Shown one piece after another: positions 3,793 to 42,713 of a stretch of 64,000 nt of DNA. Within the stretch, counting starts at the first letter, position 1; every line of letters begins with the position of its first letter. The notes beneath the pieces are model-generated. The model had not been told where the DNA came from and made no database searches. It saw only the letters and a program-made list of their open reading frames with translations. The position numbers and the translations under genes are program-made. Origin of the DNA: a virus; the IMG/VR virus record IMGVR_UViG_3300028610_001072, positions 1 through 64,000 of that record. The stretch is one strand, 5' to 3'.

Positions 3793-4131
3793 TCATGCCT
3801 GATTCTTTATGGCCGTTGAGAGGGCTTCTTCTACCGTATCGCCCCGGCCCCCGGATTTGATATATGATCTCACATGGTCTGTAATCACTGCCAGCAGGTT
3901 GACTGATGGTTCCTTGAAATCTTCCGGTACATCGAACTTGATTTCATAGGCTTTTACATCCTGCATGTGGGGGATCGCCTGACAGTGGAATCCCAATGTC
4001 ATAGCGCCATCCTGTTGCACCAGTGAGATCGTGACGTTGTAGCCAATCAATTTCCTGATCCGCTCCATGAATTCATAGATGTCCCAGAACTCGTTTTTGT
4101 ACTTCGGCTGCTTGGCAATCTTTTTAGCCAT
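3793..4131 (-). CDS. Hypothetical protein
   Basis: ORF with GAGGGGG RBS before ATG 4131; overlaps the stop of the upstream gene. Confidence 0.55.
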   Translation of the reverse strand: MAKKIAKQPKYKNEFWDIYEFMERIRKLIGYNVTISLVQQDGAMTLGFHCQAIPHMQDVKAYEIKFDVPEDFKEPSVNLLAVITDHVRSYIKSGGRGDTVEEALSTAIKNQA

Positions 4132-4321
4132 CTGGTCCCCCCTCTGTATCCACACCTTTCAACGGTGCGCTATACCCATCATATATCATTCTACCACCTA
4201 CTCGATAGAAGTAATGGGCGGTTTTGTTGCTGTCTATTATAATGAGATCGTAGTTCTCTGAGGTATATACCATGATAGGGGTTGCCGATTCTATTTTTTG
4301 AATTAATCTTCTCATATCCAT
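4124..4321 (-). CDS. Hypothetical protein
   Basis: 65-aa ORF tiling with neighbours. Confidence 0.45.
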   Translation of the reverse strand: MDMRRLIQKIESATPIMVYTSENYDLIIIDSNKTAHYFYRVGGRMIYDGYSAPLKGVDTEGGPDG

Positions 4322-4393
4322 TTCATATCCGGGGCCTCTCGTCCTAAAAGACCCCGGAAGACCCTATTTTATTTTCAACTCATATTGAGCTGG

Positions 4394-4867
4394 TTACGAT
4401 GCCTTTTTCTTCTGAGCCGGGATTGGGAAAATCTCGGTCTGCCTGCCAACATCCTTAAGGACGTTCTCAGCTTCTTTCATCAGCTTCAGGACCTTGAACC
4501 GGCATTCCTCAGTAATTGATTCGTGGGCCTCACCACCTGATTTGAGGTGTGGACCGTTGAGCGTCATGTGCTGGCCGCAGTTTAAGGTGATGACCGATTG
4601 GATGCTCACACCGATACCGCCATCGCTTTGATGGGATACACTGACGCCAGCCACCCTGATGCGTTTACTGTACTGATCGTCCGGCAACTCAGCATGTACC
4701 GGCACGTCAACGGCTAATGCCTTTAGGCACTTCAGGAAGGCGTTGTGTGGCACCTGTCCGCTTTTAAACGTTGCCTCGTACTTGTCATCCTCGGTGCCAT
4801 CAATAGGCATATCCCACTTGATGATTAAGCCCTTGCTGTCGTATTTGATTACTCTGTATTCTCGCAT
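4394..4867 (-). CDS. Hypothetical protein
   Basis: 157-aa ORF, TAGGGGA RBS. Confidence 0.6.
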   Translation of the reverse strand: MREYRVIKYDSKGLIIKWDMPIDGTEDDKYEATFKSGQVPHNAFLKCLKALAVDVPVHAELPDDQYSKRIRVAGVSVSHQSDGGIGVSIQSVITLNCGQHMTLNGPHLKSGGEAHESITEECRFKVLKLMKEAENVLKDVGRQTEIFPIPAQKKKAS

Positions 4868-4869
4868 GG

Positions 4870-5112
4870 TTAGTCCCCTATGGTTGGTTTTATGGTACTC
4901 TTGAACTTATCGAAAAACACTTCCGGTGATTGCCGGTAAAATTCGCACAGCCGGACAAAGGTGTCTATGGTTGGTGTGGTATCGCCATTGATGATTGTAT
5001 ATACTCCCGGCGTTGTTAGATTGGTCCCTTTGGCAATATCGTTATAGGTGTGTGCATTTGCCATTCGCAGGTCCTGCATCCGCCGCTTGAAGTATTTTTT
5101 ATTGAATTTCAT
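4870..5112 (-). CDS. XRE/Cro-family HTH transcriptional regulator
   Basis: LRMANAHTYNDIAKGTNLTTPGVYTIINGDTTPTIDTFVRLCEFY fits the HTH_XRE pattern. Confidence 0.8.
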   Translation of the reverse strand: MKFNKKYFKRRMQDLRMANAHTYNDIAKGTNLTTPGVYTIINGDTTPTIDTFVRLCEFYRQSPEVFFDKFKSTIKPTIGD

Positions 5113-5405
5113 TTCTTAACCTCGTCAGGTTCCCACCATGCTATCAGGCAGGGATACCGTTTGGTTCGTTGTACTTTCTCTTTGGCATATTTCATAATCG
5201 GGATTCCCCCGACGGTGATCTCTGTAATTGTTTTCTCTGATAAATCCCACGCATTAATTATTGTGTCCGTGAGGGTTGGGTTGGTGACTCCGTGATCCGC
5301 CAACCGTTTTAGTTTCCGCCTTCCCAGTTCCCGGTATGCCAAGACTGCCTGACTGCATCTCTCCGCTGCGATGATCGTGTGGTCGTTGACTAGGAAGAGC
5401 TTCAT
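5109..5405 (-). CDS. Hypothetical protein
   Basis: 98-aa ORF, ATGA overlap with downstream gene. Confidence 0.55.
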   Translation of the reverse strand: MKLFLVNDHTIIAAERCSQAVLAYRELGRRKLKRLADHGVTNPTLTDTIINAWDLSEKTITEITVGGIPIMKYAKEKVQRTKRYPCLIAWWEPDEVKK

Positions 5406-5606
5406 TCATTGTGGCCTCTTTATACTGTGGAGAAGATCACCTGTTAATACTATATTATTGACTCCTCTTCCTAGCTTCTGGCTTTGTCGAAAATTGTATC
5501 GCGTCATGCCGGTTGGAAACATATTATTCTCATCCATGCACTGTTCACACTGGGGAGAAAATTTCTTATGTTTTTTACAGGCCACTCGGATTACTGTGGT
5601 GCTCAT
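5406..5606 (-). CDS. Small Cys-containing hypothetical protein
   Basis: 66-aa ORF with AAGGA RBS just downstream of the tRNA. Confidence 0.45.
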   Translation of the reverse strand: MSTTVIRVACKKHKKFSPQCEQCMDENNMFPTGMTRYNFRQSQKLGRGVNNIVLTGDLLHSIKRPQ

Positions 5607-5627
5607 ATTATCGGTTCCTTATTGTTT

Positions 5628-5705
5628 TGGGGTGCAAGGGGGGAGTCGAACCCCCAATCTCTCGGGCCACAACCGAGTGGCTTTACCAATTTGCCCACAA
5701 GCACC
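5628..5705 (-). tRNA. tRNA-His (GUG)
   Basis: Minus strand folds as a cloverleaf: anticodon stem CTCGG/CCGAG with loop TTGTGGC, T-arm GGGGG-TTCGACT-CCCCC, encoded CCA, G-1 and C73 His identity elements. Confidence 0.92.
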
Positions 5706-5712
5706 ATAATTC

Positions 5713-7923
5713 TCATATTATCAGATTCCTTTTGGTTGTTACCTTGAGGTCGGCTCGGAGATCGGATTCCGTCTGCCCTAGATGCTGGTCAATATCCTGA
5801 GCAAGCTGCTCCATACCGCCGCTTATAAGTGATGTGCTCTGGGGAGTTACCTTACCGCTTCGCTCGATACCCAACTTTGCCATCCGGGAGTTGAGAGTAT
5901 TCACCCACTTGACCCAACTCTGGTAAAGCATATCCACCATTGGCTCTGACCATTTCACCTTGTACCGTGCCCTGAGCCAGATGCGCATCTCAGCATTATT
6001 GCTCGGTTTCTTCTGGTTGGTATCGACAAAATCTTTGTAGGCTATATCGAACAGGATTAGCATTTGATCCAGCTCTTTATCCACATCCTCTTCAGAGTCT
6101 TCCCCTACATCGATGCTGAGCCGCTTGCCTTGGTAGCCATACTGGCAGATCAGATTATTGCAGATCACGGTTGCGTCCCAGACATCCTTTGAACCACCAT
6201 CCGGGTGATCGATCTTGTGATTGCCCTCGAGAATGATTTGGTGCATTTCAGTTTGCAGTAGATCATGGTCCAGATACTCGACTGCATTATTCCATACCAG
6301 ATGCCGGAACAATCGCCCATAGAGTAGCTGCATTGCATTTGTGAATGATAGCCGCTCGCAATTACCCACTCCCACATCCAGCGCCTTTTGCCGGATGCTC
6401 TCTGTCTGGAAGCTGTCAAAGTGGAAGGCCCGGCTCCGGGGGAAATGATCCCGGAACATCTTCATCATAACATCTTCTACATTCATGTAGTCGATCCCCC
6501 AGCCCGGCTTCTTCGCTTCCCAAACAAGTATAATGTCGATCACCGGCCTGCAATCGATGGTGGTTTCCTTGACCTCTTCAATACCTTCCTTGGTGCGGAC
6601 ATGGTAAGTGAAGGTAGCCACGTCCCGGTCCATCTTTTCAGGGTAGCCGCCCACTATGACCAGCCGGTCCTTATTGATCGCATAGTCGCCGCCCCAGTAT
6701 CGGTCCCGATTATCTCCGACTACTTTCAGGAGCTCCAGTGCGGTGTATGGGACTCGCTTCGGCTCCCCCTTGACTACCTCGTCACGGTGGGTAATGACTT
6801 CCTTCACCTGCACCGGTGATACCAGTTTGGGATTGGCACAATCATTGATCTTGCCAAAGTGAGGCATGAAGAATCCAAATACATTCGGGGGAACTATGGC
6901 CCGCCAGCGGCGGTCGGCATCGATTGGGTCTTTCGCTCGATCCTCTTTATAGGCGGCCTTTTTCGCTTTCTGGTCCTTATTGTTGAATACATACGTTGCA
7001 TACCATGCAGTCAGCACACCGTTGACAATTTCCATCTTGTTCTCTTTCGGAGCCTTGGAATAATAGTCGAAGGTCTCCACCAACAGGTCATTCACTTCCT
7101 GCTCGGGATATGCGAACATTATGGTTAATCGGTGATGGGGATTTGTGAAGCGGGTTTTCTGGTTGGTGTAGGCAGTTTTATATTGATGAGCGGCCACTGC
7201 AAATTTGGCACTGGTATTGGCCCGGCTCGGTTCATCCTCGATGGTGATCCAGATCGTATAACCTTCAACTGATTTGGCCGTCGTATCCAAGCAGTACACC
7301 CGGATGTCTCCGTACAGGTCATTACGGTTGGGGATGATCATCTCTTTTTCTTTGATGTCCCCTTGGCCGAACTGCTTCAGCCTGAAGCCTTGGTGCTCTG
7401 CGAACCAGTTATTGCCGCTGATGGGATCGCGGGTCAACCTTATGATGTCCCCCAGCGATCTATAGAATACGTTTTTGGCCTGCTGGGCATTCACCTGTGA
7501 ATAGTTCAGGATGTCGAATGGCTCATTGTGGGCCAGTCCGAAATAACTATGTGGGTCTTCGAGGCAGCACCAGAGATATATCGCATACACTACGATCCGG
7601 GACACAGTGAAATTCTTTCCGCCACCTTGACCGATTTTCAGGATGGCCTGCTCGACTGCGAAAAACCATTTGGCTGGGTCCTTGCCGAATATCCCATTGA
7701 TGACTTTTTTCTGGGCCTCTGATAGTGATTTGGTGCCGATGAATGTTTCGATGAATTCAATAGGTCCGACGGGATCAGTGCGCCACAATCGGCCTGATCG
7801 CTCTTGGTACTCAGCCTCAGCCATACGGCCAGCTTCCCGCTCATAGAACGCCATCTCTTGCGGGAGCTCACTCGCTGATTGAGACAAGTTTGGTGAAGTA
7901 GGTGTCCTTGTTATTCCGTTCAT
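5713..7923 (-). CDS. terL: Terminase large subunit
   Basis: Walker A IGQGGGKNF, Walker B ITIEDEPSR, C-terminal nuclease KIDHPDGGSKDVWDA; upstream of portal. True start may be 7854. Confidence 0.92.
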   Translation of the reverse strand: MNGITRTPTSPNLSQSASELPQEMAFYEREAGRMAEAEYQERSGRLWRTDPVGPIEFIETFIGTKSLSEAQKKVINGIFGKDPAKWFFAVEQAILKIGQGGGKNFTVSRIVVYAIYLWCCLEDPHSYFGLAHNEPFDILNYSQVNAQQAKNVFYRSLGDIIRLTRDPISGNNWFAEHQGFRLKQFGQGDIKEKEMIIPNRNDLYGDIRVYCLDTTAKSVEGYTIWITIEDEPSRANTSAKFAVAAHQYKTAYTNQKTRFTNPHHRLTIMFAYPEQEVNDLLVETFDYYSKAPKENKMEIVNGVLTAWYATYVFNNKDQKAKKAAYKEDRAKDPIDADRRWRAIVPPNVFGFFMPHFGKINDCANPKLVSPVQVKEVITHRDEVVKGEPKRVPYTALELLKVVGDNRDRYWGGDYAINKDRLVIVGGYPEKMDRDVATFTYHVRTKEGIEEVKETTIDCRPVIDIILVWEAKKPGWGIDYMNVEDVMMKMFRDHFPRSRAFHFDSFQTESIRQKALDVGVGNCERLSFTNAMQLLYGRLFRHLVWNNAVEYLDHDLLQTEMHQIILEGNHKIDHPDGGSKDVWDATVICNNLICQYGYQGKRLSIDVGEDSEEDVDKELDQMLILFDIAYKDFVDTNQKKPSNNAEMRIWLRARYKVKWSEPMVDMLYQSWVKWVNTLNSRMAKLGIERSGKVTPQSTSLISGGMEQLAQDIDQHLGQTESDLRADLKVTTKRNLII

Positions 7924-9443: not shown

Positions 9444-9776
9444 TTAACGTTGACTGGTGTTCATTAAACTCTTCTTCGATAAAATCTCTTCCACTTCCTG
9501 ATATGTTTTCGACTTCCGGCATGGCCTGCATGTTACCTGATCGAGATCGCTTAATTTCTCTGGCTCTCCCTTATCAGCTATTGATTCCCCGAAATCCATA
9601 TCGTCTGCAATTAGAGCCGATGCACAGGAGTCTCTGCCACAGCCGGTGATCCCCCCAATATTGAATAATTTACTCTCTTTTAGGGTATCAACCAGATGAT
9701 ACTTGGACATATCCGGCATCATGCCATACTTCATGCGGCCAGCCCATGCGATTATATAGAATCTTGGCTCATCCAT
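9444..9776 (-). CDS. Hypothetical Cys-containing protein
   Basis: 110 aa; TGCG and VTCRPC motifs; overlaps upstream stop. Confidence 0.55.
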   Translation of the reverse strand: MDEPRFYIIAWAGRMKYGMMPDMSKYHLVDTLKESKLFNIGGITGCGRDSCASALIADDMDFGESIADKGEPEKLSDLDQVTCRPCRKSKTYQEVEEILSKKSLMNTSQR

Positions 9777-10155
9777 TTTTCTGCCACCACATTAATGATT
9801 CTTCAGCCTTGGTTAATGCCAGTGCTCGCTCTCTGGTAGCGATCAATCTCCGTTCATCCTCTGAGAATGTTACAGCCTCTTGTATTTCATTCATCCGGGC
9901 GATCACTTTTTTAAGCAGGTCCTCTGGCTCTTCCCGGCCAACTATGGTGTTGATGAATGTCATCGCCCGCTTATTGATCGCCTCGTATGCAGGGCCGTCC
10001 AATAATGTCAGCAAGACCTTCAGATGATCCGCTGCTATTTTTGACACACCCGCCAGTTCAGCAATATCAAGCACCTCTGATAATTGAACCAGTGCTTCGT
10101 TGGCTATTTTAATAAACTCCCATTGGTCATTGATTAATTGTCGTGGCTTTTCCAT
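9769..10155 (-). CDS. Tad1/Acb2-like helical-hairpin protein, paralog 2
   Basis: EDLLKKVIARMNEIQ...RERALALTKAEESLMWW resembles the Tad1 C-terminal hairpin as recalled (DLLxIVxDRLxxFQ...RENAxALTHxEEALMW). Confidence 0.55.
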   Translation of the reverse strand: MEKPRQLINDQWEFIKIANEALVQLSEVLDIAELAGVSKIAADHLKVLLTLLDGPAYEAINKRAMTFINTIVGREEPEDLLKKVIARMNEIQEAVTFSEDERRLIATRERALALTKAEESLMWWQKNG

Positions 10156-10547
10156 TATTTACCCAGTCCTTTCTCCAGCCAGAGTAATGATTCTTCAGCC
10201 TTGGTGATCGCTATTGCCCGCTCTCTCAGGCCCTTCTCCCTCTCTGGAATATCTGCTAGTGTGAGCTGTGAGGCGTTCATTGCGATGGCCTGATCTTTAT
10301 TCAACCGTGCAATTATATTTTCGAGCAACTGCTCTGGCTGTTCCTTCCCATAAACCATATTGACATATTCCAATGCACGGGCCGCGAGGATTGTATATCT
10401 CTCCCCGTGTAGTAGACTGCTCAGGGCTTCCCATTTGAAAGCCTGTTGCATTTCATCGTGATCCATTGAGACTATCGCGGTGTGTGTATCCTGAATCTCA
10501 CGGATCAGTTGATGCAGGTCATTGATAATGTCTCGGGGGTCTTCCAT
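10155..10547 (-). CDS. Tad1/Acb2-like helical-hairpin protein, paralog 1
   Basis: EQLLENIIARLNKDQ...RERAIAITKAEESLLWL; aligns full-length with 9769..10155; TAGGAG RBS. Confidence 0.55.
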   Translation of the reverse strand: MEDPRDIINDLHQLIREIQDTHTAIVSMDHDEMQQAFKWEALSSLLHGERYTILAARALEYVNMVYGKEQPEQLLENIIARLNKDQAIAMNASQLTLADIPEREKGLRERAIAITKAEESLLWLEKGLGK

Positions 10548-10571
10548 GCTATTTCTCCTATTTAACTTGAC

Positions 10572-12331
10572 TGGGCTTCAACTACCTAATTTTATTCGCT
10601 TAGTACAAATGGGTTTCTATGGAATATTGGCTCGCTGTCAAATGTTGGTTTTCTTCTTGATTCCGGCTCACTTATCTCCTTTGGTTTGCTAAACTAGAAG
10701 TGGCTCACTTTGCGATTTGGGGTTGCTATCGATTTATGGTTCGCTGATGGTTGTTGGGTTCCTTAAAATCTATGGCTCACTCCCTTTAAATGGGTTACTA
10801 GGTTCGATTGGTACGCTATATATTATCGGGTTGCTTTTCTATGTATGGCTCGCTGATTACATTCGGGTTGCTCGATCATTCCGGCTCGCTGCTCTATATC
10901 GGGCTTCTAACTTTGCACGACTCACTTAACATCAATGGGTTTCTATTGATTACAGGTCCACTTGAGTTCATTTGGATTGCTTTGATGCTTTGATTCATTT
11001 GGTCACTTTGGATTGCTATATGTTATCGGTTCACTCATTTTGTTTGGTTTGCTTTCCGCCCGTTGGTTCACTCAAATACTTACGGGTTGCTCTCTGCCTT
11101 CGGTACACTCCACTAATATGGATTCCTTAAATCTTACGGTTCGCTGATATTTATTGGGTTGCTCATTTTACACGGCTCACTCAACTTATATGGATTCCTT
11201 AAACCTTACGGTTCGTTGTAGATCACTGGGATTCTCTTTCTGCCTGACTCGCTTTAAAATGATGGGTTCCTTGACCTTTCTGGCTCGCTACAATCGGATG
11301 GATTCCTTGATCGTGCTGGCTCACTTGTATTTTTTGGGTTGCTATTCCGGCTTGATTCACTTCTGCTTATTGGGTTGCTATTCATCAATGGTTCACTAAT
11401 AGGTAACGGGGCTACTTTTCATTTCCGGTTCACTCAATACTTACGGGTTACTTTCATGTGTTGGTTCACTTGTATGGAATGGATTCCTTTCATAGTCTGG
11501 TACACTGGACATGGCCGGGTTCCTCAGATTCATTGGCTCGCTACCATCGCAAGGGTTTCTTATCAAAATTGACTCACTTGGTTCCATTGGATTTCTCAAA
11601 ACATTTGGTACGCTGTTCGTTCTCGGATTTCTCAATATGACTGGCACACTTCCTTTTGTTGGATTACTGGGATCATGTGATTCGCTACTGTTTATTGGTA
11701 TCCTTATCTGTTATTGGCCCGCTAAACTAATCTGGATTCCTTTGACCTATCGGCCCACTTGCTGGAAACGGGTTGCTGGACTCTATCTCGGTACACTTCA
11801 TGGATTCGGGTTCCTATCCGATATTGGTTCGCCTTTAATACTATGGATTGCTTCTCTTGTTTGGCGCACTTCGTTTAGCATGGATTCCTGACACTACTTT
11901 GATCCGTTTGTTTTCAACGGGTTACTACCGAAGGGTGGCCCGCTTTAACGTTGTGGTTTTCTTAATGTTGTTGACTCACTTTAAGTTGTCGTTGTAATTG
12001 CATACCTTGATTCACTTCTCATCAATGGTTTCCTTGATGGGTATGGTTCGCTTTTAACTCCGGGTTACTTGGTTCCTTGGCTCACTCAACGATACTGGAT
12101 TCCTTGTCATAGTTGGTTCGCTACTTATTACCGGGTTGCTTGATTCGATTGACTCACTTATTCAAAACCGGGTTACTATTTAACGATGGTACGCTGTGCG
12201 TGTTTGGGTTTCTTTTTGACTACGCATCTTACTGGCTCGCTGTTGTTGATTGGGCTACTCAATTCAGTTGGCTCGCTGGCTTCAGTCGGGTTTCTTGTAC
12301 TTTCCGGCCCGCTGAACATTAATGGATGACT
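10572..12331 (-). ncRNA. TIGR-like dual-repeat guide RNA array (~48 units, 36-nt period)
   Basis: Plus strand parses as YGGYTCRCT-N9-YGGRTTNCT-N9 repeated ~48 times (minus-strand sense AGYGARCCR-N9-AGNAAYCCR-N9) with variable spacers; no continuous ORF; directly downstream of a Nop-domain gene. Strand inferred from flanking genes. Confidence 0.9.
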
Positions 12332-12335
12332 TTGA

Positions 12336-12458
12336 TTAATCAGCGTTGCTATTTTTTCGGTTTCGCCGTGCCTTGATCCATCCATAGACTATCACAAGCA
12401 CTCCCGCGATCCATCCAATAATAGGCCCAATAATTAGTTCATGGTGGAGAAATGTCAT
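12336..12458 (-). CDS. 40-aa single-pass membrane micro-protein
   Basis: Manual translation MTFLHHELIIGPIIGWIAGVLVIVYGWIKARRNRKNSNAD; ATGA overlap with the stop of 12455..13351; hydrophobic segment then basic tail. Confidence 0.6.
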   Translation of the reverse strand: MTFLHHELIIGPIIGWIAGVLVIVYGWIKARRNRKNSNAD

Positions 12459-13351
12459 CCTACCTTCCGGTGCTCATCCAATCCCAGTTTCTCAACATGG
12501 TAAGGCTTCGATACCGGCAGACCTTCCAACTGTCTCCACTTAACATAGAGATCAATCAGGAATATCTTCACCATCTTGCGGATCGCCATCGCATGACGGT
12601 GCCCCGGCTTCTCCTCTTCACCATAAACCGGATGACTCTCCAGCCGGTGCTTCTCATTCTCATAGATGTCGGCATATATCGAGCCGGTTCTCAGGAATGA
12701 TGGCCCCAACACACCAATCAATTTAGTCTTTAACAATGGGTTGAAGGTGATCGAATTGCGCTTGGCGGGTTTTTTGTTCTTATCTATATAATCCACTTCA
12801 ACCAAGTGGTTTTTGGTGCGATTGCGTCCCTTACCATCGGGAACTGTGCAACGCTTGGGATCGGTTGCCACATCAAGACCGGCATAAGCCCATAACGATG
12901 ATGGATAATCAGCCTTGTAGATGTCGAACTCACTGATAATGATGGCCCCCATTGCCGGACCAACCCCCACAACCTTTTCCAAGAACTTGGTCCAGAGGGG
13001 GAAAGCTACCAATTCCTTTCCCAGTCCCCGGAACTGGCGCTCTTCCTGCTTCAGCAGGTCAAGGTAATGCCCTATAAGTGTCATCTCTGAGTCTGTGGAG
13101 ATTATGCCCTCGCCTTCCGGGTCCAGTGTGACCACGCCGTCCGTGATCCGGGTATATTCCTTGCGGAGCTTCCCCAGCAGACTTTGCTTTTTCTTATCAG
13201 ACAGGTCTTTTTCCTTGGTGCCGGGATCAATCCCCAGCTTCACTTTAAAATTACCAACCAGCCTATTTCCCATCTGGATGCGTAACTCCTGAATGTCATA
13301 GGTCCCTCTGACCATTGACCTTAATAATTCCCAACTTCTTCCACGTTTCAT
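12455..13351 (-). CDS. tasA: TasA-like stand-alone Nop/IS110-type RNA-binding protein (no RuvC/HNH)
   Basis: N-terminal coiled coil (YDIQELRIQMGNRL), VVGVGPAMGAIIISEFDI...SSLWAYAGL (IS110 Transposase_20/Nop motif), HRHAMAIRKMVKIFL; no DEDD domain, no SG catalytic loop; adjacent 36-nt array; CAGGAG RBS. Confidence 0.85.
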   Translation of the reverse strand: MKRGRSWELLRSMVRGTYDIQELRIQMGNRLVGNFKVKLGIDPGTKEKDLSDKKKQSLLGKLRKEYTRITDGVVTLDPEGEGIISTDSEMTLIGHYLDLLKQEERQFRGLGKELVAFPLWTKFLEKVVGVGPAMGAIIISEFDIYKADYPSSLWAYAGLDVATDPKRCTVPDGKGRNRTKNHLVEVDYIDKNKKPAKRNSITFNPLLKTKLIGVLGPSFLRTGSIYADIYENEKHRLESHPVYGEEEKPGHRHAMAIRKMVKIFLIDLYVKWRQLEGLPVSKPYHVEKLGLDEHRKVG

Positions 13352-13378: not shown

Positions 13379-13561
13379 TCAAATTTTTCCTCTCCCGATA
13401 CAGGTGGGACATGCTAACTCTTTTCCGTCCCGCTTGATTGAGCGATCCCCCTTGCACTCCGGGCATATCTTGGTTGGCCGATGCTCTCCCAGCATTTCAT
13501 CAACCTCAGTCTGCATTTCGTCAAGTTGCCGCTGGAGCCTGTCGAGATGGGATTCGCTCAT
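13379..13561 (-). CDS. Small protein with DnaJ-type zinc finger
   Basis: CPECKGD...CPTCIGRG. Confidence 0.6.
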   Translation of the reverse strand: MSESHLDRLQRQLDEMQTEVDEMLGEHRPTKICPECKGDRSIKRDGKELACPTCIGRGKI

Positions 13562-14100: not shown

Positions 14101-14630
14101 TGTCCGATACCTTCCTTCACTGTTGCGATCCTCTTCAATGTAAGTTTGTCATGCTCCAGATAATAGCCGTGCAGCTCTTCAATCTCCGTCAGCAACTCGA
14201 GCAACGTGGTGATGTCCGCCTGCTGGCTTTCAATCTTCGTCGCCTGTGTCTGGGAATACTCCGGGAGTACCAGTTCCCCTATCTTATTGACCATCCATTC
14301 CCAAGGATTAGCCTGTGCTGCGGTCTCGTCAAATATATCCATGACCTTCTTTTTCAGACCAACCTGACCGCCCTTGGTCAGCATCTCTTCCAGTGCCACA
14401 CCCTTCCGGCCCAACTCAATTGTTTCGGCCATCTCGGTCATTGCATGTTGGTAGATGTCAGCTTGGATACCGGCTTTCACGAAGTCTGCTCTTGGCACGT
14501 TAAATATTGTTGTCTCAATGGCTTCCATGAGTATCCGCCCTACCTCAGCGGCTATGTGGTCACTTTGGGCTGGCAATTTCAGATTTCCCATTTTGTACCT
14601 CGTTTTTGTTGCGGAGAACTGTCTCCGCAT
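14097..14630 (-). CDS. Hypothetical protein
   Basis: 177-aa ORF, ATGA overlap with downstream gene. Confidence 0.55.
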   Translation of the reverse strand: MRRQFSATKTRYKMGNLKLPAQSDHIAAEVGRILMEAIETTIFNVPRADFVKAGIQADIYQHAMTEMAETIELGRKGVALEEMLTKGGQVGLKKKVMDIFDETAAQANPWEWMVNKIGELVLPEYSQTQATKIESQQADITTLLELLTEIEELHGYYLEHDKLTLKRIATVKEGIGQ

Positions 14631-14837
14631 TTTTTATATCCCGTGATATTCGCAATCGCCGCCGCATTCTTGAATGTTTTCCCTTGGCAACAATTAACCG
14701 TTCCCCCAAAATAGATCGACATAGAGGACTGATTGTATCTTTAGCAAGTGACCCCTCGATTATCAGTATTATTTCCTGCTCAATGATTATCATCTGCTTT
14801 TATCCTCTTCCCACCCCCCCCCTCAGCAGCTACGTGA

Positions 14838-15095
14838 TCACTTTGCTGGGGGAGTTTGAGATTCATTGGATGATTCTCCGCCTAGCATTAGAACATTGGG
14901 CTTGATGCCTGTCATTTTCGCATAGTCCATTTCCAATTTGAGGGTGGAAATAACCTTTCCGGTCGCATTGGTGATGGCATTGATCGCTGCTGGTGAGGTT
15001 TTGCCACTCCGTAGATTCTCGATTTCCTCAAGTAGAATACTGCGCAGATCGTTGATTGTTTTGACTTCCTGTACTTTAACTTCGTTGTCAGGCAT
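14838..15095 (-). CDS. Small helical phage protein
   Basis: Start at ATG 15095 after GGGAGG; INDLRSILLEEIENLRSG...AITNATGKVIST. Confidence 0.6.
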   Translation of the reverse strand: MPDNEVKVQEVKTINDLRSILLEEIENLRSGKTSPAAINAITNATGKVISTLKLEMDYAKMTGIKPNVLMLGGESSNESQTPPAK

Positions 15096-15756
15096 TGTGT
15101 GCCTCCCTTGCTTCTCGTTTAAGCTGCGTGTGCAGCATTTGAATCTCAACTAATTCGTCAGGGACTTCAGACCTCTTTAGTGTGGTGTGCCTAGTAAGAA
15201 TACCCCTCGCACTGGTTGTCCCTTTGGGGTACATCCTCATCGCTATTGTCCTACACGGTATAGAGCAGTATTTCCCCCTATCTTTCTGCTTTCCCAGCCC
15301 ACTAACGGACCACCTTCTCCAAAAGAATTGACCACAAATTTGACAATTCCCCCTGACAAGCGTGGGTTGCTCTGGTGCGCATTTAGCACATTTGGGTGAG
15401 CAGTATATTCTCTTGTCAATTCCATATCTAATACCTTTTGTAATATTTCTTATTGGTCCACCACACCGCAGGCACCGAAACGCTGCGATCTTTTTATCAA
15501 TTACCGCCATTTGACACTCTCGAGAACAATGCGTTGCAGTGTAGCTGTTTGATCTTAGTTCAGGTGTATCGGCATGACGACCGCAATTACTACAACGCCA
15601 AGCGTTTCTCCGAGCGCCTAATCCCTTCCTTCTACATGCTATCGAGCAGTATTTGGTAGTCGCAACAATGGCTGGGTTTACTCGGAAGGCGATCCCACAC
15701 TGGATACAAATTTTATTCGGTGGTTTCACGATGTACAACACGGTGCTTGAGGGCAT
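15088..15756 (-). CDS. Multi-zinc-finger protein (repeated CxxC...Y/HCSxxC)
   Basis: Four CxxC ... CSxxC modules (YCSIAC, HCSREC, YCSPKC, YCSIPC); no HNH motif visible. Confidence 0.7.
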   Translation of the reverse strand: MPSSTVLYIVKPPNKICIQCGIAFRVNPAIVATTKYCSIACRRKGLGARRNAWRCSNCGRHADTPELRSNSYTATHCSRECQMAVIDKKIAAFRCLRCGGPIRNITKGIRYGIDKRIYCSPKCAKCAPEQPTLVRGNCQICGQFFWRRWSVSGLGKQKDRGKYCSIPCRTIAMRMYPKGTTSARGILTRHTTLKRSEVPDELVEIQMLHTQLKREAREAHNA

Positions 15757-42605: not shown

Positions 42606-42713
42606 TTGATTCTCCAGACGGTTGTTATTAAATCTGTTCTAACACCCTATACATCCAACATTCCCAGAGCCTACAAACGAGACTGTGTGAACGAGAATTC
42701 CCATTATAGGGAG

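Follow-up and report, generated by a model that had tools for sequence, protein, structure and literature searches.

A TIGR-TasA-type locus with about 48 predicted guides in the complete genome of a virulent-type myovirus

TIGR-Tas systems are compact RNA-guided DNA binders that are free of a protospacer-adjacent motif, and they currently attract attention in biology as well as in engineering. For TaTasR, a base pair joins C3 to the G6 of the edge repeat before it, with the cut at G4|A5. The synthetic TaTasR guide tigRNA1 reads AGCCA-UGCAAGCCC-UGAAACCCA-UUGCCUUAG-UGCG (Faure et al., Table S3), from which the edge repeat is UGCG|AGCCA and the loop repeat is UGAAACCCA. In SpTasH, Y289 is the catalytic Tyr of a Y/H self-processing dyad (PMC13421893); self-processing by this dyad is metal-independent and dual-repeat systems show conservation of the dyad. 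MbTasA binds target DNA and represses transcription reversibly (Xu et al. 2026, 10.64898/2026.09.09.750476), and the nuclease-less PlTasA binds target DNA (10.64898/2026.08.11.744272). Here, we analyzed a stretch of 64,000 nucleotides (nt) of viral DNA (positions 1 to 64,000 of IMG/VR record IMGVR_UViG_3300028610_001072; hereafter the window), in which a gene for a Tas-like protein, tasA, stands beside a long array of short alternating repeats.

The whole record is 101,523 bp long, is rated complete in IMG/VR with direct terminal repeats, and has the window as its first 64 kb. A sequence-only reading of the window had proposed a phage-encoded TIGR-Tas dual-repeat array co-oriented with a TasA gene, and this proposal was borne out by the complete genome with its myovirus-type genes and by repeats nearly identical to those of TaTasR. 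We consider it highly probable that the locus is a dual-repeat TIGR-TasA system of a myovirus, which makes about 48 tigRNAs and acts by non-cutting binding on DNA other than the phage's own. Systems of this kind are already published (Faure et al. 2025; Xu et al. 2026) and are covered by NCBI annotation models. What goes beyond routine here is the length of the array, a covariation test performed within it, and the contrast with a relative that has only two units. As a specimen, the locus combines an effector that lacks a nuclease with about 48 distinct guides in a single contiguous array, all within a complete, terminally redundant phage genome.

The array and the pairing between its edge repeats

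The periodicity expected by the sequence-only reading, with peaks at 18 and 36 nt, was found. The autocorrelation of positions 10570-12335 was 0.394 at lag 18 and 0.453 at lag 36, with further peaks at 54 and 72, against a background (lags 1-120) of 0.274 ± 0.036; in three control regions of equal length it stayed at or below 0.295. An 18-nt walk along the minus strand gave 48 edge repeats AGYGARCCR, from 12313 down to 10600-10592, alternating with 48 loop repeats AGNAAYCCR, from 12331 to 10618. Reverse-complemented, they give the two consensuses that had been read on the plus strand, YGGYTCRCT and YGGRTTNCT. The earlier estimate of about 48 A-type repeats and about 47 guides corresponds to 48 edge repeats and 47 full units, and a 48th unit next to the leader (unit 0) was added here. 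We applied as the definition of a dual-repeat array two distinct alternating repeats of 8-12 nt, spacers of about 9 nt and a 36-nt unit, and all three features are present.

The spacers were 9 nt long in 80 of 96 cases and otherwise 8, 10 or 11 nt, with one of 19 nt. When the edge repeats were cut in the middle, 34 of the 47 units measured 36 nt, nine 37 nt, two 38 nt, one 34 nt and one 46 nt. Both kinds of repeat start with AG and end with CCR, which are box D and box C of Faure et al.; in TaTasR these boxes read UG and CCA. G2 occurred in 45/48 of the edge repeats and 47/48 of the loop repeats; position 7 was C or, in 11 edges, U, and pairing between positions 2 and 7 was possible in 47/48 edge and 48/48 loop repeats. 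As the sequence-only reading had stated, no continuous open reading frame (ORF) crosses the array: stop codons number 17-50 in each of the six frames, and on the gene strand no open stretch is longer than 89 codons. Neither a second such array nor a scattered guide unit was found elsewhere in the 101.5-kb genome. No Rfam family matched the array, and Tandem Repeats Finder missed it because its units are too divergent.

Several units deserve separate mention. Unit 3 (12232-12214) has a 19-nt spacer A, gtaagatgcgtagtcaaaa, apparently the result of a 10-nt insertion, and its closing pair is kept. Units 31 and 33 (11217-11110), 72 nt apart, are diverged duplicates that agree at 15/18 spacer positions and have one loop variant in common; no other pair of units is clearly paralogous, the other spacer pairs being distinct. 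Spacer B of units 24 and 34 is nearly equal (taagtattg and taagtatttg), while their spacers A differ.

In 47/47 units, the base at position 3 of one edge repeat pairs with that at position 6 of the edge repeat before it, as 23 U-A, 22 C-G and 2 U-G pairs (permutation p < 1e-4). This neighbor pair had the highest mutual information among 703 column pairs. Pairing of positions 3 and 6 inside the same repeat (36/48) and with the reverse neighbor (37/47) was at chance. The test was possible within a single array since Y3 and R6 are both polymorphic. All intermediates were U-G and never A-C, and 11 edges had U7 opposite G2; both observations favor the minus strand as the RNA strand. From the DNA letters alone, the covariation thus shows which strand is transcribed into guide RNA, that the edge repeat is AGYGARCCR and the loop repeat the A-rich AGNAAYCCR, and that a functional unit begins with the 3' half of an edge and finishes with the 5' half of the following one. 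Edge positions 3 and 6 delimit the cut, and homology with TaTasR would place it at G4|A5. The same pattern argues that essentially all units, including those of odd length, are still under selection at the RNA level. Neighbor covariation is a test on sequence alone that tells the strand of the RNA, identifies the edge repeat, delimits the cut window and indicates selection on nearly every unit. In the arrays of relatives, the closing pair was mostly fixed (C-G in most, U-A in some), and the rare variants obeyed the neighbor rule.

The protein encoded upstream

The gene upstream of the array in the direction of transcription is preceded by a ribosome-binding site, AGGAGAA, at a distance of 8 nt. 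Its product (P0001) carries the Nop-type motif GVGPAMGAIIISEFD...LWAYAGL and no nuclease domain, as noticed in the sequence-only reading, which had also proposed a comparison with TasA, IS110 and Nop5. Pfam gave only a weak Transposase_20 match at residues 123-161, located at the GVGP...AYAGL motif. By contrast, NCBIfam NF052498 ('TIGR-Tas system RNA-guided endonuclease', TIGR_Tas_endo) matched with 115.8 bits against a curated cutoff of 100, over profile positions 1-215 of 215. A phmmer search of the PDB returned TaTasR (9mty, 2.3e-16) and SpTasH (5e-9).

An AlphaFold (AF2) model built from an alignment of 43 homologues had a predicted local distance difference test score (pLDDT) of 86 and a predicted template modeling score (pTM) of 0.80. 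The top ten Foldseek hits of the model were all TasH or TasR, followed by the IS621 recombinase and Nop5. With VIA-align, residues 2-298 superposed on TasH residues 63-304 (Z 20.8) and TasR residues 111-317 (Z 18.7), as well as on IS621 residues 123-322 (Z 14) and on Nop5 (Z about 8), all of which indicates a Nop fold. The superposed regions of TasH and TasR are the parts that follow their nuclease domains, and hence the whole length of the protein corresponds to the coiled-coil and Nop part that follows the nuclease in TasH, TasR and IS110. Its closest homologues begin at the same N-terminus. Neither the superposition nor the N-termini of homologues revealed a RuvC or HNH domain fused to the Nop module; a protein lacking such an N-terminal part belongs to the TasA subtype. 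Therefore, on the basis of the model and the profile match, we concluded that the gene product is a TasA.

Y284 of TasA aligns with SpTasH Y289, and Y284, K288 and H294 were invariant in the 43 homologues. H294 sits 10 residues past Y284, compared with 7 in SpTasH, in a low-confidence part of the model. Y284 and H294 are putative processing residues, consistent with the Y/H self-processing loop of dual-repeat systems.

Proposed action of the locus and its alternatives

A mechanism can be proposed as follows. The array would be transcribed as a long precursor, probably together with tasA, since there is no terminator between tasA and the array or between the array and the next genes. A TasA dimer would bind each unit via the AG (box D) and CCR (box C) shared by edge and loop repeats, and the precursor would be cut between G4 and A5 of every edge repeat, probably by the Tyr/His dyad of TasA (Y284, H294). 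The products would be about 48 tigRNAs with the structure 5'-ARCCR, spacer A, AGNAAYCCR, spacer B, AGYG-3', in most cases 36 nt in length, and the G2-C7 pair and a unit-specific R6-Y3 pair would close each of them. The ribonucleoprotein would bind an 18-bp site made of spacer A and the reverse complement of spacer B, each strand pairing with one of the two spacers, and would block transcription or replication without cutting, as TasA has no nuclease. Because no sites were found in the phage's own genome, the guides would be aimed at other DNA, namely that of the host or of competing elements. Processing by TasA, DNA binding and repression are steps that we infer by analogy; guided binding without cutting, possibly leading to repression, had also been suggested in the sequence-only reading and matches what is published for other TasA proteins.

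Targets were searched with the geometry of the TaTasR oligonucleotides, in which one strand has spacer A first and then the reverse complement of spacer B, and out-of-phase spacer pairs and a wrong geometry served as controls. In the phage's own 101.5-kb genome, searched at 0-4 mismatches, there was no site at two or fewer, and sites with 3-4 mismatches were as frequent as in the controls. The published geometry with gaps of 0-4 nt gave 1 match there, compared with 0-2 in the controls, and the unit-0 target had no match at up to 3 mismatches. Guide matches were at chance level in 743 kb of Tas-related viral loci and in 151 kb of kin phages found via the tail sheath (53-78% identity), and so were those of 293 guides of relatives in this phage. 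Two exact 18-mer scans of IMG/VR gave 1 and 0 matches, which is chance-like. The unit-0 target had 14 matches in IMG/VR, collapsing to about 7 independent ones; these look like chance because nearly all lie in AT-rich phages (27-38% GC), mostly in a coding-like context.

The base composition of the spacers was also determined. They contain 33% G+C compared with 49% in the genome, and 58% purines; across 30 arrays, spacer G+C tracked that of the flanking DNA (r = 0.68) at a level about 10 points lower. This is compatible with host-like targets biased toward AT-rich sites and equally with shared mutational pressure plus an unwinding constraint, and we drew no conclusion from it.

The guides might instead regulate the phage's own genes by way of sites in its genome to which they are partly complementary, as a timing switch or to control superinfection, and this would suit the position of the locus between early/replication and packaging genes. 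TasA proteins can repress transcription, and TaTasR acted on a site matching 9/9 of one spacer and 6/9 of the other, so imperfect sites can be bound. However, apart from one that also occurs at control frequency, the genome has no site with two or fewer mismatches; those with 3-4 mismatches were equally common for out-of-phase pairs and the wrong geometry, unit 0 again lacked any at three or fewer, and no conserved promoter module was matched by the guides or lay near the locus. We regard own-gene regulation as improbable. Only a trifle less so is the possibility that TasA is a guide-binding module which recruits a separate partner of the phage or host, with cleavage or another modification as the outcome. 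Although TasA loci are sometimes operonic with ParB-like partners (Faure et al., PMC12045711), no ParB-like gene was present among ten neighbors scanned, and the HNH endonuclease gene 1.7 kb upstream belongs to an ordinary phage homing-endonuclease family and is not adjacent. The 60-amino-acid (aa) zinc-ribbon ORF that lies just upstream of tasA carries no nuclease motif, and the N-termini of relatives do not include it; no conserved neighbor was noticed beside the tas genes of relatives, though no systematic screen was made.

The kept closing pair (C-G or U-A) argues against a third explanation, in which the array is a decaying relic with few working units and a remainder of neutral repeats expanded by slippage. 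Being polymorphic, this pair needs continued RNA-level selection on each unit to be kept in 47/47. In addition, box positions G2, C7 and C8 are kept in 45-48/48 of both repeat kinds (with U7 in 11 edges), and all spacer pairs but one are distinct. These observations make the relic explanation very unlikely, despite the 13/47 units of non-canonical length, several degenerate repeats, the diverged duplicates at units 31 and 33 (15/18) and a relative with 81% identity that has about 2 units. Finally, a period of 18/36 nt is a multiple of three and iteron fields can be regular, so that a translated repeat protein or a protein-binding iteron field (a replication origin or centromere-like site) was also considered. 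A protein is contradicted by the stop codons in every frame, and iterons by a covariation that spans 33 nt, accepts G-U but not A-C and is directional, which is the signature of RNA pairing; the same kind of array moreover lies beside tas homologues in about 73/80 viral loci. This last explanation is scarcely credible.

Several points nevertheless weigh against the proposal of a TIGR-TasA system that binds foreign DNA. No target was found in any DNA searched, and DNA binding and purpose are therefore conclusions by analogy. MbTasA was shown to repress and PlTasA, with stem-loop guides in place of dual repeats, to bind DNA, and the published result for the dual-repeat FpTasA is limited to the binding of 36-nt RNAs. 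H294 may not be equivalent to SpTasH H296, given the spacing of 10 versus 7 residues. No terminator-like site follows the array on the minus strand, and rho-independent terminators are typical of TIGR arrays; a 3'-truncated last edge followed by a terminator is described as 'typical' and not stated to be obligatory (PMC12045711). Thirteen of the 47 units are not 36 nt long and the loop repeat at 11998 has degenerated strongly; a part of the units may therefore be non-functional. Among the public runs containing this phage sequence, there was no RNA run.

Genomic setting, relatives and known systems

The terminal repeat of the phage genome was measured here as about 144 bp. Crude gene calls placed 119/140 genes on the minus strand, and tasA and the array share this strand with nearly all phage genes. 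The encoded proteins include a tail sheath, baseplate, portal, tail lysin, SbcCD-like nuclease and small-terminase-like protein, and tasA and the array belong to a virulent-type myovirus. The TIGR locus is placed between early/replication-type genes and the packaging module. Megablast of window positions 1-25000 gave no match to named phages, and the only public run containing the phage sequence is a DNA subsurface metagenome, probably its source. A conserved promoter-like module, CGTTCACACAGTCTC-N-TTGGATGTATAGTAT, was observed upstream of gene runs at 42693, 82275, 84479, 86973 and 89002 on the minus strand; the copy at 42693 is the only one inside the window, and none is near the TIGR locus. 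The features of the locus and its surroundings, and of two loci in cultured organisms, are listed in Table 1.

Table 1. Coordinates of features discussed in the text
Feature	Position	Strand	Remarks
tRNA-His (GTG)	5628-5704	minus	between portal-side genes and a 736-aa protein
Two ~130-aa genes	9769-10155, 10155-10547	minus	directly downstream of the array
Dual-repeat TIGR array	10592..12344	minus	unit 0, 47 full units, 3'-truncated last edge
Last edge repeat	10600-10592	minus	AGCGAATAA; 3'-truncated, 5' half intact
Unit 0	12344-12310	minus	GCTG-ATTAATCAA-AGTCATCCA-TTAATGTTC-AGCG; 5'-truncated edge GCTG at 12344-12341
40-aa ORF	12336..12458	minus	one hydrophobic helix and a basic tail
tasA	12455..13351	minus	298-aa nuclease-less TIGR-associated protein (P0001), coiled coil and Nop domain
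60-aa ORF	13379..13561	minus	just upstream of tasA; coiled coil and DnaJ-like CxxCxGxG zinc ribbon
HNH endonuclease gene	15088-15756		1.7 kb upstream of tasA; ordinary phage homing-endonuclease family
phiRSL1 array	L082, about 5030-6330 (record 14275-15575)
Sporomusa aerivorans 17-unit array	L094, 3320-3977		upstream of tas (4001-4879)

The next gene downstream has its ribosome-binding site and ATG (10547) 45 nt beyond the end of the array. In Pfam, the Acb2/Tad1 hairpin domain matched both ~130-aa genes weakly and below threshold (19.7 bits, E 1e-3, and 16.6 bits, E 9e-3, where 27 bits are required), and the two may be candidate anti-defense sponge paralogues. If they are Acb2/Tad1-like, the TIGR locus would adjoin counter-defense genes. 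The 40-aa ORF between tasA and the array is uncertain as a real gene: it begins with an ATG that shares bases with the tasA stop (ATGA), it runs with its last three codons into unit 0, and it is present neither in the close relative L120, in which tas reads 31 codons further, nor in relatives with an array starting 14-32 nt after tas, as is the case in most of them. The 60-aa ORF is in frame with tasA, with one TGA between them. A split TasH, with this ORF as a detached HNH domain, was rejected, since there is no HNH motif and the homologues have no such extension.

TasA was matched by 1,696 proteins at E ≤ 1e-5. Relatives are encoded on 196 viral contigs, 80 of which were covered by an array survey, and about 73 of these 80 loci had a 36-nt periodic tract beside tas. 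All AG....CCR arrays in the surveyed loci were co-oriented with tas, and single arrays contained 7-29 units. The longest contiguous tract among the 80 loci was 1,512 nt, compared with 1,872 nt here with the same detector. Cellular relatives were found in 20 of 185,579 species genomes, in unrelated phyla and mostly on short contigs of metagenome-assembled genomes. These results indicated that the TasA clade is essentially viral.

The closest relative compared was L120, a 1.3-kb metagenome contig encoding a TasA of 81% identity. Its unit 0 has spacers 17/18 identical to those here and two differences in the loop repeat, both at free positions. In its unit 1, the spacers have diverged and the closing pair has switched from G-C to A-U via two changes. 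The array of L120 ends after about 2 units, before a converging gene. Array size thus differs about 20-fold between close relatives, and the guide next to the leader is the conserved one; a contrast of 2 and 48 units at 81% identity shows how fast array size changes. Further relatives have 75%, 66% and 63% identity. P0005-P0010 (57-66% identity) have about 30 extra residues, GVPCxxDCxKxxCxKRGxH..., inserted in the Nop domain; this Cys-rich insertion is probably a zinc-binding module and is not present in the TasA described here or in the relatives of 75-81% identity.

The last base of spacer B was linked to the type of closing pair (C10/T6/A6/G0 in G-C units and A16/G7/C1/T1 in A-U units); in relatives this base is purine-rich whatever the closing pair. 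The two types of closing pair were randomly interspersed along the array (25 runs, 24.4 expected), and an origin of the mixed pairs by fusion of two arrays was rejected by this runs test. Across the G4|A5 junction of the same edge repeat, closing-pair type and last spacer B base were independent. We raise, as a speculation that is more probably wrong than right by a wide distance, that the tigRNA-sized unit cut at G4|A5 may be the evolving module of the array, with whole cassettes inserted, lost and exchanged. The linkage within a unit across 30 nt of unrelated spacer, the independence at G4|A5 and the random interspersion fit this idea, and the 48 versus about 2 units in the 81% relative, with only the leader-proximal unit conserved, would fit as well. 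If true, it would be a first handle on the mechanism of spacer acquisition in TIGR arrays.

Two relatives with known hosts were observed. The cultured Ralstonia jumbo phage phiRSL1 (L082, AB366653.2) encodes a TasA homologue of 32% identity, ORF034, labeled 'transposase' in RefSeq, and the unannotated 1.4-kb gap after ORF034 contains about 37 units with 18/36-nt periodic AG..CC. This locus is not mentioned in the main text of Faure et al. (PMC12045711). The chromosome of Sporomusa aerivorans DSM 13326, a complete genome, encodes a TasA of 43% identity (L094, 2402538-2411416), and two units of its array are near-duplicates (ATATTGCAA/AACTTTTTT and GTATTGCAA/AACTTTTTT). Both loci would permit target hunting with a known host, and phiRSL1 would be a tractable model for this reason. 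When eight of the 17 Sporomusa aerivorans guides were searched in its own 6.5-Mb genome, one 1-mismatch site was found in an NlpC/P60 peptidoglycan hydrolase gene (4102234; L104). It was not significant (p about 0.08 after eight tests; at no more than one mismatch, chance gives about 0.01 sites for each guide in 6.5 Mb), and two-mismatch sites were as frequent as for reversed patterns.

Among known systems, the IS110 recombinases (IS621, PDB 8WT6) and archaeal box C/D Nop5 share with TasA the Nop-type RNA-binding domain and the coiled coil. Unlike these, TasA has neither a DEDD/RuvC-like catalytic domain nor a fibrillarin-binding N-terminal domain, and the guides form a tandem array instead of a single bridge RNA (IS110) or a snoRNA (Nop5). 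IS110 transposases combine an N-terminal DEDD (RuvC-like) catalytic domain with a C-terminal domain containing a Ser, and use one bridge RNA. An IS110 transposase was rejected on account of the NCBIfam transpos_IS110 score (18.2 bits, cutoff 140), the superposition limited to residues 123-322 of IS621, and the 48-unit array. CRISPR-Cas systems have repeats of 25-36 nt, spacers of similar size and cas genes. CRISPR-Cas was rejected as well, since here two kinds of repeat alternate, and both repeats and spacers measure 9 nt; no cas-like family was found among 20 neighboring and large proteins scanned.

SpTasH from Salicola phage CGphi29 (PDB 9W03, 9W04 and 21KL) was the best structural match, with Z 20-21 over about 220 residues. 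It has an N-terminal HNH nuclease (residues 1-62) and 8-nt spacers, whereas the present system has neither. TaTasR, from a Thermoproteota archaeon (PDB 9MTY), matched with Z 18.7 and a root-mean-square deviation of 2.2 Å over 193 residues. TasR cuts DNA with an N-terminal RuvC nuclease (residues 1-110), whereas TasA begins at the start of the TasR coiled coil. Edge and loop repeats AGCG|AGCCA and AGAAACCCA of the present array are identical to those of TaTasR apart from the first base, so that box D is AG here and UG there, and the additional C3-G6 pair is common to both. The behavior of MbTasA and PlTasA is that proposed for the present protein, and PlTasA uses stem-loop guides.

The system of Flavonifractor plautii, FpTIGR (Faure et al. 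2025, Science, PMC12045711), is alike in that it is phage-borne and has a solo coiled-coil and Nop protein. Arrays of its type are also alike in having two alternating short repeats, 9-nt spacers, 36-nt units, a 5'-truncated first edge and a 3'-truncated last edge. In contrast to FpTIGR, there is no terminator after the present array, and the closing pair is polymorphic within one array. With about 48 units, compared with 'most often 5 to 15' in TIGR arrays (PMC12045711), the present array is about three times as long as the published dual-repeat mean of about 16 units (65,635 tigRNAs in 4,126 arrays).

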